From Holophagales bacterium (GTDB lineage Bacteria > Acidobacteriota > Thermoanaerobaculia > Multivoradales > UBA5704), in the NCBI GenBank assembly GCA_031390755.1, contig JANMTS010000065.1, positions 3,205 through 67,204 of the forward strand: 64,000 nt of DNA, given 5' to 3'. Positions 16-13,321 of this stretch are shown here, piece after piece (the first letter of the stretch is position 1; every line of letters starts with the position of its first letter). Both the position numbers and the translations under genes were made by a program. The notes under the pieces were generated by a model. The model was not told where the DNA came from and searched no databases. It worked only from the letters and a program-made list of their open reading frames with translations.

Positions 16-345
16 TCAGCCCCTCATCGGCATCGAGAATGCACTGGTGCCCGGTCTATCCGCCTGCCCCTGGAAGAAGGCGATCGTGTCGCTGACAGCC
101 TGCTGAGCGCGCGCAGCGTCCGGTGAGACCCAATGGTAGTAGGCGATCTGGTTGGCGTGCCGCTCAGCCTTCTGGTTGGGAGTCCCGCCGGTGCTGTTGA
201 TCACCCCCGGAAAAGGCACGCTGCACTGGCCCGCCGCCGTGCATTTGAGATCGGGCAGCGGATAGGCGGAATGGAACTGGACGGTGTTGGCTCCGAGCGC
301 CTTGTTGAGCTGCTCCGCGCCCTGGACCGATGAATCGTCTCTCAT
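16..345 (-). CDS. hypothetical protein (109 aa), distal gene of the minus-strand operon
   Basis: ATG at 345 preceded by GAGGAG SD; inside ORF 16..399; no recognised motif. Confidence 0.65.
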   Translation of the reverse strand: MRDDSSVQGAEQLNKALGANTVQFHSAYPLPDLKCTAAGQCSVPFPGVINSTGGTPNQKAERHANQIAYYHWVSPDAARAQQAVSDTIAFFQGQADRPGTSAFSMPMRG

Positions 346-447
346 GGTTTCTCCTCTCGAAAATCTGAATCGTTTACTTTTGCTTGAGCCTGCCGCCACC
401 TGGCGCCTGATGACCAGGCGCCAGGTGAGTCTTGTGCGGGAGGGTCG

Positions 448-11693: not shown

Positions 11694-13321
11694 CCGGGCC
11701 CAGGCGCAAGCCCGAGCGCGCTGCGGCGGAGGCGCAGCCCGTGCCGCGAAACTCCGAGCAGGTCGGCGGCGGCGTCGACATCGCCTCCGGCGCGCTCGAG
11801 GGCCGCGGCGATCTCCTCGCGGCTCAGGGACGACGCCTTGCGCAGCTCTGGATGGCGCTCGACCCAGCCGTAGAGCGCGGTGCGCGAGATCCCGAGCCGG
11901 CCGGCGGCGAGGGTGAGGTTGAACTGCTCGGCCTGCAACGCGGCGAGGATGTCCGCGTCGTCGAGCTCGGCCACGGAGCGAAGTTGGCGCGGCCGGGTCT
12001 TGGGCGGGTCTGTTGCCGAAATCGCTGACATCGCCGACATTGCCGATCCTGCGGGCATCGCCGGCTCCGGGCCGGCCGCTGCGAAGAGCGCCGTTTCGAG
12101 ATCCGGGGGCAGCTCCGCCGTGGCCCCGGCGCTCGCCCCGGCGGCCAGCCGACGGGCGACGTTGCGCAGCTCGCGCACGTTGCCCGGCCAGTCGGCGGCG
12201 GCCAACCGTGCGACCAGGCGCGCCGGCAGCCAGGGCCGGCCCTCGGGGGCGGGATTGTCGAGCCGGTGCGCCTCGCCCGAGGCTTCGAGCTCCTGGCGCA
12301 GGAAATGGACCAGCAGGCGGCCGATGTCGTCGCGGCGCATCCGCAAGGGAGGCAGGCGGATCTGGTCGCCTTGCAGACGGTGCAGCAGAGGAGCCCGGAA
12401 GCGCCCGTCCGCCACCAGCCTCTCCAGGTCGGCGTCGGTGGCGGCGACGACGCGAACGTCGACCCGGCGCGGTGCGTCGGCACCGACCGGTTGGATTTCG
12501 CCGTTCTCGAGGGTGCGCAAGAGGAGGGCCTGGACCTCGGGCGGAGCCTCGCCGACCTCGTCGAGAAAGAGCGTGCCGCCGTCGGCGCGCTCGAAATAGC
12601 CCTCGCGCCGCCGATCGGCGCCGGTGAAGGAGCCGCGCGCCGCACCGAACAGCTCGGAAGCGGCGAGCGACGTAGGCACCGCCCCGAGATTCAGGGTGAG
12701 ATAGGGGCCGCGGTGACGCGGCGACGCCTGATGGATCGCCCGGGCCACCAGCTCCTTGCCGGTCCCGGTCTCGCCGCGCAGGAGCACGGGCGCCGAAAGC
12801 GCTGCGGCGCGGCGGATGGCGGCACGCAGCTCCACGAGCGCGGCGCCGTCGCCGATCAGGCCGTAGCGGTCGAGGTGCCGCGGCTGGGCACTGGGCAGGA
12901 TGTGGAGGAGCAAGGCGATGTGCCCGCCCAGCAGCAGGGGAACGCCGCGCGCGAGATCGGCCGGTCCGAGCTCGTCCTGCGCCTCGACGCCGAAGGCTTC
13001 GATACGGCTGCCTCCGGACTCGGCCAGGATGCGGATCGATCCCGGCGGCTCACCCGGAGCGAGAGTGATCGGCTTGCGGCTGAGATGGAGATCGTCGAGA
13101 GGCCGGGTCTCCGCGCTTCCGGGCTGCGCGAAGAGGGGTGCGAGGCGCGACAGAGGGACCGGCCGGCCCGAAGTCAGAGCCGGCAACAGCACCCGCTCTC
13201 CCACTCGCGCTGTCACCGGATGCGCGAGAATGGTCAGCGCCGGGACGCGCAGATCCAGCGCATGCTTCTCCCGGGTCTCGCTGACCACGGTGGAGGGGCC
13301 CTGCTCGCGGGACGCTGGCAT
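11690..13321 (-). CDS. sigma54-dependent transcriptional activator (bEBP) with FHA-like N-terminus and HTH
   Basis: GETGTGKE, GSFTGA (GAFTGA variant), FLDEVGE, WPGNVRELRN; two C-terminal Fis-like HTH motifs. Confidence 0.93.
   Translation of the reverse strand: MPASREQGPSTVVSETREKHALDLRVPALTILAHPVTARVGERVLLPALTSGRPVPLSRLAPLFAQPGSAETRPLDDLHLSRKPITLAPGEPPGSIRILAESGGSRIEAFGVEAQDELGPADLARGVPLLLGGHIALLLHILPSAQPRHLDRYGLIGDGAALVELRAAIRRAAALSAPVLLRGETGTGKELVARAIHQASPRHRGPYLTLNLGAVPTSLAASELFGAARGSFTGADRRREGYFERADGGTLFLDEVGEAPPEVQALLLRTLENGEIQPVGADAPRRVDVRVVAATDADLERLVADGRFRAPLLHRLQGDQIRLPPLRMRRDDIGRLLVHFLRQELEASGEAHRLDNPAPEGRPWLPARLVARLAAADWPGNVRELRNVARRLAAGASAGATAELPPDLETALFAAAGPEPAMPAGSAMSAMSAISATDPPKTRPRQLRSVAELDDADILAALQAEQFNLTLAAGRLGISRTALYGWVERHPELRKASSLSREEIAAALERAGGDVDAAADLLGVSRHGLRLRRSALGLAPGPG

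Follow-up and report, generated by a model that had tools for sequence, protein, structure and literature searches.

What does a closely spaced set of mostly orphan genes do for the cell that carries it, and which signal switches the set on? The question is raised by the left end of a stretch of 64,000 nucleotides (nt) from a Holophagales bacterium (contig JANMTS010000065.1 of assembly GCA_031390755.1), hereafter the window, which corresponds to G000:C138:3205-67204 in our numbering of the assembly (G000; 7.6 Mb, 185 contigs, ~68% G+C). Open reading frame (ORF) calls place ten minus-strand genes and one plus-strand gene in the region 1-13321. Eight of the minus-strand genes constitute what we call the cargo and encode, in order, two beta-rich paralogs (parA and parB), a beta-propeller, a protein of 993 amino acids (aa), a tail-collar protein, a metallo-beta-lactamase-fold (MBL) protein, orf157 and a last gene starting at 345; upstream of them are the genes for a sigma-54 enhancer-binding protein (bEBP) and a Ser/Thr kinase. 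A sequence-only reading of this DNA had taken the locus to be a self-contained operon of secreted and toxin-like proteins controlled by that kinase and sigma-54. Sequence comparison indicates that the cargo is a rare, conserved block of mostly orphan proteins built around the 993-aa protein and the collar protein coupled to it. Its closest known analogue is rhiABC of Rhizobium leguminosarum/johnstonii (pRL10) together with mrpAB of Microcystis aeruginosa. We tentatively favor the explanation, which we hold at somewhat less than an even chance, that the products make up a module of the rhi/mrp kind for binding or envelope interaction, induced by a signal and expressed as a sigma-54 operon under the bEBP and kinase.

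The 993-aa protein (2707..5688, minus strand) has neither a signal peptide nor a transmembrane (TM) helix, and could be assigned to no family. It matched nothing in Pfam, NCBIfam, PHROGs and PADLOC, the sequence libraries used for family searches, and nothing in the PDB, where the best profile match had an E of 1.9; all 11 members of its family, searched against Pfam and PHROGs, gave nothing at E<0.06. Its ESM Atlas matches fall into unnamed clusters (recognition 1643), and the family is small, with 10 relatives in 5.8 billion cluster representatives and matches in 5 of 401 genomes of the phylum, two of them marginal. The stop codon of this gene overlaps, as ATGA, the ATG start of the gene for the collar protein (2042..2710, minus strand; 222 aa), which resembles both the tip of T4 gp12 and RhiB. 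The collar assignment is secure at the level of the domain (PF07484, 55.3 bits with the cut-off at 24, E 6.5e-15), and 19 PHROG tail-fibre families matched it, the best being phrog_523 (E 1.9e-21); a phmmer comparison with the gp12 chain 1ocy gave E 8.7e-11 over residues 42-136. As in the gp12 collar and tip structures (1ocy, 1pdi, 5iv5), the PF07484 domain is followed by an H-x-H motif, here H136-x-H138 and invariant in 5 of 5 orthologs, which we take to be the metal site of gp12. Unlike gp12, the window protein is free-standing, lacks a fibre shaft and a phage context, and has a gene that follows that of an unrelated protein and is coupled to it in translation. Hydropathy revealed no signal peptide in the collar protein either. 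The collar gene directly follows the 993 gene in all five loci with downstream sequence (the window, L010, L011, L018 and L020). Related contigs from permafrost carry in-frame 9-nt indels at window positions 3548, 4621 and 5991, two of them deletions in the 993 gene and one an insertion in the propeller gene (CGGCGGTGG), which fit variable low-complexity linkers in these two genes.

The block to which this pair belongs recurs in a second copy in G000, in two acidobacterial metagenome-assembled genomes (MAGs) and on four metagenome contigs; a search for related loci with a smaller par alignment (A4) returned 4 loci. Locus L018 has the order par, parB, propeller, 993, collar, MBL and MBL. In the MAG G402 the block is split over L033, with an extracytoplasmic function (ECF) sigma gene and parA, and L010, with parC, parB, propeller, 993 and collar. 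Up to their contig ends, L017 carries parA, parC, parB and propeller, and L016 an ECF sigma gene, parA, parB and propeller. Tandem par paralogs (two or three) are a regular element, being found in C107, L016, L017, L018, L010 and L019. The second copy in G000 (C107:2684-8028) contains no 993 gene, and a 67-nt collar remnant lies right behind its truncated propeller gene, for which reason we regard it as a deletion derivative. A more distant 993 homolog (28-30% identity) is present in genome G089 at locus L020. A comparison of the gene neighborhoods of 993 and paralog homologs, which the sequence-only reading had proposed as a check, therefore shows them to co-occur elsewhere; because they form a syntenic block in other genomes and contigs, the lack of co-occurrence that would speak against a unit is not what is seen. 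These comparisons show a rare, modular accessory block that is scattered horizontally and has a core of five parts: one to three ~210-aa beta paralogs lacking signal peptides, a Sec-type NHL propeller, an orphan of ~950-1000 aa, a collar protein translationally coupled to it and usually a Sec-type ComEC-like metallo-hydrolase domain. Two further orphans, orf157 and the last gene (p350), are attachments to the block in G000. At the G089 locus (L020, G089:C7:6000-25999, at 1657-6867), the genes flanking 993/collar are a GH19-like one, one with a weak, sub-threshold ETX/MTX2-like match (E 0.0028), an S8 protease gene and, downstream, a double GT2 glycosyltransferase gene, and by eye a 290-aa protein there repeats the N-terminal domain of the 946-aa 993 homolog.

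At the upstream end of the cargo lie parA (7703..8344, minus strand), encoding a 213-aa all-beta protein without signal peptide, and parB (6949..7632, minus strand; 227 aa), its paralog at 48% identity. An AlphaFold2 model of parA has a pLDDT of 94.9 and a pTM of 0.89. Foldseek nevertheless found nothing at E<=1e-3 for this model in the PDB or BFVD, and VIA-align gave generic sandwich matches only (about 92 of the 213 residues in the best one, at Z 8.8); single sandwich domains align with ~90-100 residues of the model, spread over 1-208. The model thus points to a confidently predicted fold without a solved relative. The par family is rare, with 54 representatives in 1.84 billion proteins and a profile match in 1 of the 401 genomes of the phylum, G000 itself; source names place further relatives in Nostoc, Ca. 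Nitrosacidococcus and Marinomonas, and a tblastn search with parA against plasmids gave one weak match (E 0.06). Beta-rich neighbors of 993/collar in L020 (202 aa) and L011 (211 aa) were considered as members of the par family and rejected (hhalign E 0.0041 and 0.002, probability 8-14%); by eye they have an N-terminal motif in common with parA, and a comparison with RhiA gave no match for either. On L019 (3885-5276), a metagenome contig with 44% G+C, three tandem par paralogs, the second with a hydrophobic N-terminus, are followed by a gene with a polyketide ketosynthase domain and an ECF sigma gene.

To our knowledge, what rhiABC and mrpAB do has been a question since about 1990, and a larger relative of these systems is therefore of interest. 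The order on pRL10 is RhiA, RhiB and RhiC, with RhiB bearing the annotation of a tail fibre protein. The collar protein of the window aligns with RhiB at 40% identity over 156 aa (E 4e-27), and its gene belongs to the same co-oriented block as parA and parB, four genes downstream and not adjacent. The ESM Atlas clusters nearest to parA (score 0.96) include members carrying RhiA_N (37% and 10%). The literature describes RhiA as an abundant cytoplasmic protein of unknown function (PMC2275737), RhiB as having a collar domain (PMC13133039) and the Microcystis proteins MrpA and MrpB as RhiA/RhiB-like and co-transcribed (PMC3328848); the function of the rhi/mrp genes is likewise given as unknown (PMC2275737, PMC3328848, PMC13133039). 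A further report presents RhiA-like PSMB proteins as ~209-aa symmetrical two-winged beta-sandwiches encoded in a four-paralog island (PMC13490719). What the window has in common with rhiABC/mrpAB is a signal-regulated operon, in the window a predicted one, that encodes an abundant beta protein of ~210-230 aa without signal peptide together with a stand-alone tail-collar protein. It adds the 993-aa protein, the NHL propeller, the ComEC-type domain and two orphans, and its control differs, being LuxR with acyl-homoserine lactone (AHL) in Rhizobium and, by prediction, an ECF sigma factor in relatives of the window and a bEBP/kinase pair in the window copy. The statement of the sequence-only reading that the locus matches no named system consequently holds for Pfam, NCBIfam, PHROGs and PADLOC, but part of it resembles rhiABC/mrpAB. 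As a relative of rhi/mrp the locus would provide new handles on these systems, among them the 993-aa protein as a partner to which the collar protein is coupled, and a beta fold that is modelled with confidence but has no solved relative.

The input to the window copy would be provided by the bEBP and kinase. The bEBP gene (11690..13321, minus strand) encodes 543 aa comprising a 150-aa N-domain without assigned family, an AAA+ domain (PF00158, E 1.9e-58) with the GSFTGA motif at aa 230, and a Fis-type helix-turn-helix (HTH_8, E 9e-16). It overlaps by 4 nt (11690-11693) the start of the kinase gene (9015..11693, minus strand), whose 892-aa product is a Hanks-type Ser/Thr kinase (Pkinase, E 2e-43) with HRDLK, DFG and SPE motifs, one TM helix (aa 332-352) and a C-terminal region matching TPR families. 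This translational coupling of a bEBP with a TPR kinase was read correctly from the sequence alone; the FHA domain ascribed to the bEBP was not recovered, as residues 1-150 matched no Pfam family at E<=5 and no PDB chain at E<=10, although a highly divergent FHA fold is possible. Ser/Thr-kinase-coupled sigma-54 activators have been described for myxobacteria. The window shares with them a bEBP gene translationally coupled to a Hanks kinase gene beside a -24/-12-type site, and differs in that no FHA domain was detected and in its acidobacterial origin, as judged from the nearest relatives of its proteins, which their sources name as Acidobacteriota or Thermoanaerobaculia MAGs. We infer that the kinase phosphorylates the bEBP. 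The genome carries four further bEBPs with the same N-domain (40-47% identity), at C3:2246-3952, C61:5633-7249, C31:105589-107247 and C107:20239-21903, the last followed by a kinase gene, so that at least five such bEBPs are present. Two of these paralogs lie less than 5 kb from a -24/-12 motif (C107:26715 and C61:1895); on C61 a TGGCAT-N5-TTGC sequence precedes a 356-aa orphan about 3.7 kb from the bEBP paralog.

The candidate promoter is a sigma-54-like -24/-12 element (TGGCACGCTTCTTGA; 8425-8411, minus strand) 66 nt before the parA start. It reads TGGCACG-N4-TTGA, with a perfect -24 half (CTGGCACG) and correct spacing, and its -12 element is TTGA, not TTGC, having GA for the consensus GC. 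From genome expectations, the chance of TGGCAC-N5-TTG[CA] in a given 300-nt one-strand stretch is ~5e-4. The TTGC form occurs 24 times in the genome against 15.5 expected, with an ORF start <=400 nt downstream in 19 of 24 cases, and rpoN is present at C28:14741-15217 (E 2e-64). Upstream of the -24 element by 63-99 nt, and roughly 95 and 117 nt from the expected start point, are two palindromes, GACCGTCCGGACGGTC and GACCGTCGGACGGTC (8488..8524), that are 6 nt apart and have the form GACCGTC-N1-2-GACGGTC; even the more permissive pattern GACCGTC-N1-4-GACGGTC has no occurrence in the 7.6 Mb other than these two at 8488-8524. We infer that these palindromes are activator binding sites. A sigma-54-type promoter beside the bEBP/kinase pair is thus plausible from the motifs, and the corresponding claim of the sequence-only reading is favored by the -24 element, the spacing, rpoN, the GSFTGA motif and the palindromes, and qualified by the TTGA at -12. 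The earlier description of the cargo as co-oriented genes with strong ribosome binding sites proved sound: all eight lie on the minus strand, with Shine-Dalgarno-like GGAG/AAGGAG sequences 5-9 nt ahead of seven of the eight starts. Spacing within the eight genes is <=70 nt, minus-strand terminator-like sites were absent across 1-13600, and a scan for sigma-70-type promoters found 0 sites.

Among the related loci the regulators are different ones. By tblastn, neither the bEBP nor the kinase matched in seven non-G000 loci or L033. An ECF-type sigma gene lies directly upstream of parA in three of the five related loci with upstream sequence (C107, L016 and G402), elsewhere on the contig in L019, and nowhere in L017. 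Directly upstream of 993 in L011, the gene at 7677-9902 encodes a 741-aa protein in which ECF sigma regions 2 and 4 are fused to a long TPR region, a composition that marks it as a one-protein counterpart of sigma plus TPR sensor. Since the regulators lie outside the conserved block and relatives carry an ECF sigma gene, the window copy appears to have swapped its regulatory input; the block's regulator is accordingly interchangeable, and the plausible kinase/sigma-54 wiring is specific to the window copy. The locus is in this respect a clear natural example of one cargo block under different signal-transduction inputs, and the self-containment claimed by the sequence-only reading does not extend to the regulators, as bEBP, kinase and motif were not found in related loci, which have an ECF sigma gene instead. 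An ECF sigma remnant upstream of the window operon, hinted at by a MAFFT alignment, was rejected because tblastn gave only E 5.3.

Taken in sequence, the steps of the rhi/mrp-kind explanation that we favor would be as follows. The window block would be transcribed as one operon from the sigma-54-type promoter, switched on by the neighboring bEBP bound at the two palindromes. The co-translated membrane Ser/Thr kinase would set the activity of the bEBP, its TPR domain sensing conditions outside the cytoplasm. The 993-aa protein would carry or assemble the collar trimer, whose part would be that of a knob that binds a ligand; inside the cell, ligands would be bound by the beta-sandwich paralogs, present in abundance, and the propeller and hydrolase may act in the periplasm or outside the cell. 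A bolder version, which we consider improbable on present evidence, holds that the 993-aa protein, collar trimer and beta-sandwich paralogs form a novel non-phage binding device, a 'cellular tail fibre' equipped with accessory proteins of its own, of which RhiA/RhiB and MrpA/MrpB would be the minimal two-part version, and that this portable cargo is plugged into ECF sigma, AHL/LuxR or Ser/Thr kinase plus bEBP/sigma-54 control.

Several observations weigh against the rhi/mrp-kind explanation, some of them against the likeness to rhi and others against the sigma-54 wiring or the unity of the block. With respect to rhi, the parA family profile compared with that of RhiA gave an hhalign E of 0.27 and a probability of 0.2%, and the RhiA profile found nothing in G000 at E<=1 and no match over the 401 genomes of the phylum. 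The 28 listed relatives of parA are without a Pfam tag, whereas all 120 listed relatives of RhiA carry PF27136 (RhiA_N; PF27136.1). No RhiC counterpart was found among the window proteins (best BLASTP E 0.21, to the kinase), and a collar gene lies within 5 kb in only one of three RhiA contexts examined. Because the profile tests fail to make parA and parB RhiA homologs and a RhiC counterpart is missing, the likeness to rhi is of the 'works like' kind and falls short of showing membership in the RhiA family. With respect to the wiring, the TTGA form of the -24/-12 motif is no more frequent in the genome than chance would have it (10 occurrences, 7.3 expected). Neither a -24/-12 motif nor a palindrome was found near the par/993 genes in the seven related loci scanned or in L033, the only relaxed -24/-12 match among them lying elsewhere in L020, and the motif is missing from the aligned upstream regions of the orthologs C107, L016 and L017. 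A plus-strand gene of 132 aa sits between the kinase and the operon. As to unity, G401 and G089 have 993 and collar although no member of the parA family was detected in them, and relatives of orf157 and p350 lie on other contigs in G402. Should the rhi analogy fail, the block would still be a conserved set of orphan families (993, par) without an assignable role.

A different account is that the region is a mosaic of separately mobile cassettes (par with propeller, 993 with collar, MBL, the orphans) that happens to lie beside one of many bEBP/kinase pairs, the TGGCAC-N5-TTGA sequence being a chance match, transcription starting from another promoter and the genes having no single function. 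The cassettes do come apart, since in G401 neither par family nor propeller was detected beside 993-collar-MBL, the G089 locus is reduced to 993-collar, and the orphans are separate in G402. The chance frequency of the TTGA form agrees with this account, as do an IS66 transposase gene at the left flank and a drop in G+C content to 0.60-0.65 over 7001-9000, from about 0.70 in the surroundings. The at least five bEBPs also fit it, and beyond the C107 cargo, at a distance of 0.9 kb, another bEBP/kinase pair is found in convergent orientation, which suggests mere crowding; given this pair and the five bEBPs with a shared N-domain, bEBP/kinase proximity alone is weak evidence of control. Yet the par-to-collar order is kept in three independent sources (window, G402 and L018), the motif has the low chance expectation given above for a stretch of 300 nt, the two genome-unique palindromes lie at enhancer distance, and the tight spacing and ATGA overlap argue for co-expression. 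On balance, a mosaic without common function seems to us rather unlikely.

The remaining proteins with recognizable domains bear on three other explanations. The propeller (5710..6915, minus strand; 401 aa) begins with a signal-peptide-like N-terminus and is of the NHL type (22.9 bits, cut-off 20). It matched designed Pizza propellers at E 8e-18 and the NHL domains of TRIM2/3 at E 1e-10, and its best natural solved relative is the sensor domain of PknD (1rwi, E 2.3e-13). The identification of a paralog pair, a propeller and a tail-collar protein in the sequence-only reading is thereby upheld for all of them. The MBL protein (982..2007, minus strand; 341 aa), also with a signal-peptide-like N-terminus, is a stand-alone relative of the ComEC-type domain. 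It aligns with positions 440-646 of the 663 of TIGR00361 (E 3.3e-13, 48.7 bits against an equivalog cut-off of 190) and with solved ComEC chains (E 3e-10, HPDxDH and PHHGS motifs aligned). In common with ComEC/Rec2 it has the C-terminal MBL (nuclease) domain with catalytic motifs kept; it differs in being a soluble protein, not full-length, with neither membrane channel nor OB domain. By hydropathy the propeller and MBL protein are the only two of the eight cargo proteins with a signal-peptide-like hydrophobic N-terminus, so that 'secreted' suits these two and not the other six.

One explanation built on these proteins is the handling of a small molecule, in which the beta-sandwich paralogs would sequester a metabolite, the exported propeller and MBL protein would be periplasmic enzymes that make or degrade it, and collar and 993 would be accessory. 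Plant metabolites are reported as ligands of the RhiA-family protein PSMB1a, with Kd values from sub-micromolar to micromolar (PMC13490719), but neither hhalign nor the profile search supports a relationship of parA to RhiA. The propeller resembles the ScyD/ScyE scytonemin proteins (ScyE_fam, E 8.4e-7) and SGL lactonase-type propellers (24.8 bits, cut-off 26.3) with scores that stay below threshold, while its best solved natural relative is a sensor domain and not an enzyme, and the MBL domain belongs with ComEC, which acts on nucleic acid, and not with the lactonases. The polyketide synthase ketosynthase gene after the three par paralogs of L019 and the S8 protease and glycosyltransferase genes at the G089 locus would suit such a role, for which the window itself offers no core biosynthetic enzyme or transporter. 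We judge small-molecule handling to be unlikely as the main role.

The ComEC-like domain can also be read as a weapon. In an antagonism module the exported metallo-nuclease would be a DNase effector, the 993-aa and collar proteins would target or deliver it to competitors and the kinase would sense these competitors. The MBL protein does keep the ComEC nuclease-domain motifs behind its signal-peptide-like N-terminus, the collar domain is the receptor-binding tip in phages, the block is accessory and patchy (par family in 1 of 401 genomes, 993 in 5 of 401 with two marginal), and a weak ETX/MTX2-like gene adjoins the G089 locus. An effector of this kind would be expected in different company, however: the MBL gene has no small immunity-like neighbor, genes for a secretion system, sheath, tube or baseplate are absent (PHROGs matched only collar and MBL), 993 and collar lack signal peptides, and the MBL gene is absent from the G089 locus and broken in L011. 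PADLOC returned only generic matches, to the MBL protein (best E 2.2e-7), the kinase (PD-T4-6, mad6) and an RtcR-type AAA+ domain, and nothing for seven of the 11 proteins. The terms 'toxin-like' and 'export' of the sequence-only reading find no backing, as a toxin-like match was absent for every protein in every library. Antagonism is accordingly an unlikely role for this block.

A last origin to consider is a decayed prophage or tailocin, with the collar protein as what is left of its tail fibre. The 19 tail-fibre families matched by the collar protein, the match of the MBL protein to phrog_7043 'tail protein' (E 3.6e-11) and the insertion sequence (IS) nearby invite this idea. PHROG matches were obtained for only those two of the nine proteins scanned, and capsid, terminase, sheath, tube, baseplate and integrase genes are absent among the eight cargo genes and from the conserved block elsewhere. 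The same non-phage gene order is kept across genomes, and the absence of a BFVD match for the parA model adds to these objections, which together make a phage remnant extremely improbable.

The rest of the region contains orphans and features of the left edge. The plus-strand gene mentioned above (8648..9046; 132 aa), an ORF with Shine-Dalgarno sequence GGAAAGGAG, points away from the operon and towards the kinase gene, whose 3' end it overlaps by 32 nt; it matched no family in the four libraries and has no second copy in the genome. It had been overlooked in the sequence-only reading. Pfam assigned no family to seven of the 11 proteins scanned, and no Rfam family reached its gathering score over 1-13600. 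Of the two orphans named by the sequence-only reading, orf157 (448..921, minus strand) is indeed a conserved orphan, with relatives in C107 (77%), in C25 (38%) and on another contig of G402 (53%), and without a family in Pfam/NCBIfam or a PDB match. The C25 relative (C25:11277-12269) is the first domain of a 330-aa protein whose N-terminus is signal-peptide-like and whose gene has unrelated neighbors.

The second orphan, 'orf127' (16-399), is the N-terminal part of p350, a gene for ~350 aa whose first third lies at 1..345 (minus strand) and whose remainder runs left of the window (C138:2540-3204), so that the block does continue beyond the left edge, to C138:2540, as had been suspected. It is colinear with an intact 353-aa ORF at C107:6967-8028, but split over two frames that meet near window 49-58. 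When contigs from two runs, the probable source run and one from permafrost that is unrelated to it, were compared with the window, an extra G was seen behind window position 58 in X1 (28.5/28.5 depth) and X2 (5.4/5.4 depth). As independent contigs carry one more G, the apparent frameshift is probably a consensus error of the assembly.

The DNA left of p350 contains an ORF of 113 aa, the IS66 transposase gene and, at C138:1890, a promoter of the canonical TGGCAC-N5-TTGC form that is accompanied by GTTGTCGGAG repeats. Near-identical canonical sigma-54 promoters (TGGCACATCCCTTGC) are present at C138:1880-2010 (minus strand) and C107:26600-26730, both preceded by GTTGTCGGAG direct repeats and an inverted repeat. 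The C107 copy precedes a 92-aa gene and a vWA-like gene; at the C138 copy the genes downstream seem to have been replaced by the IS66 transposase gene (C138:9-1436).

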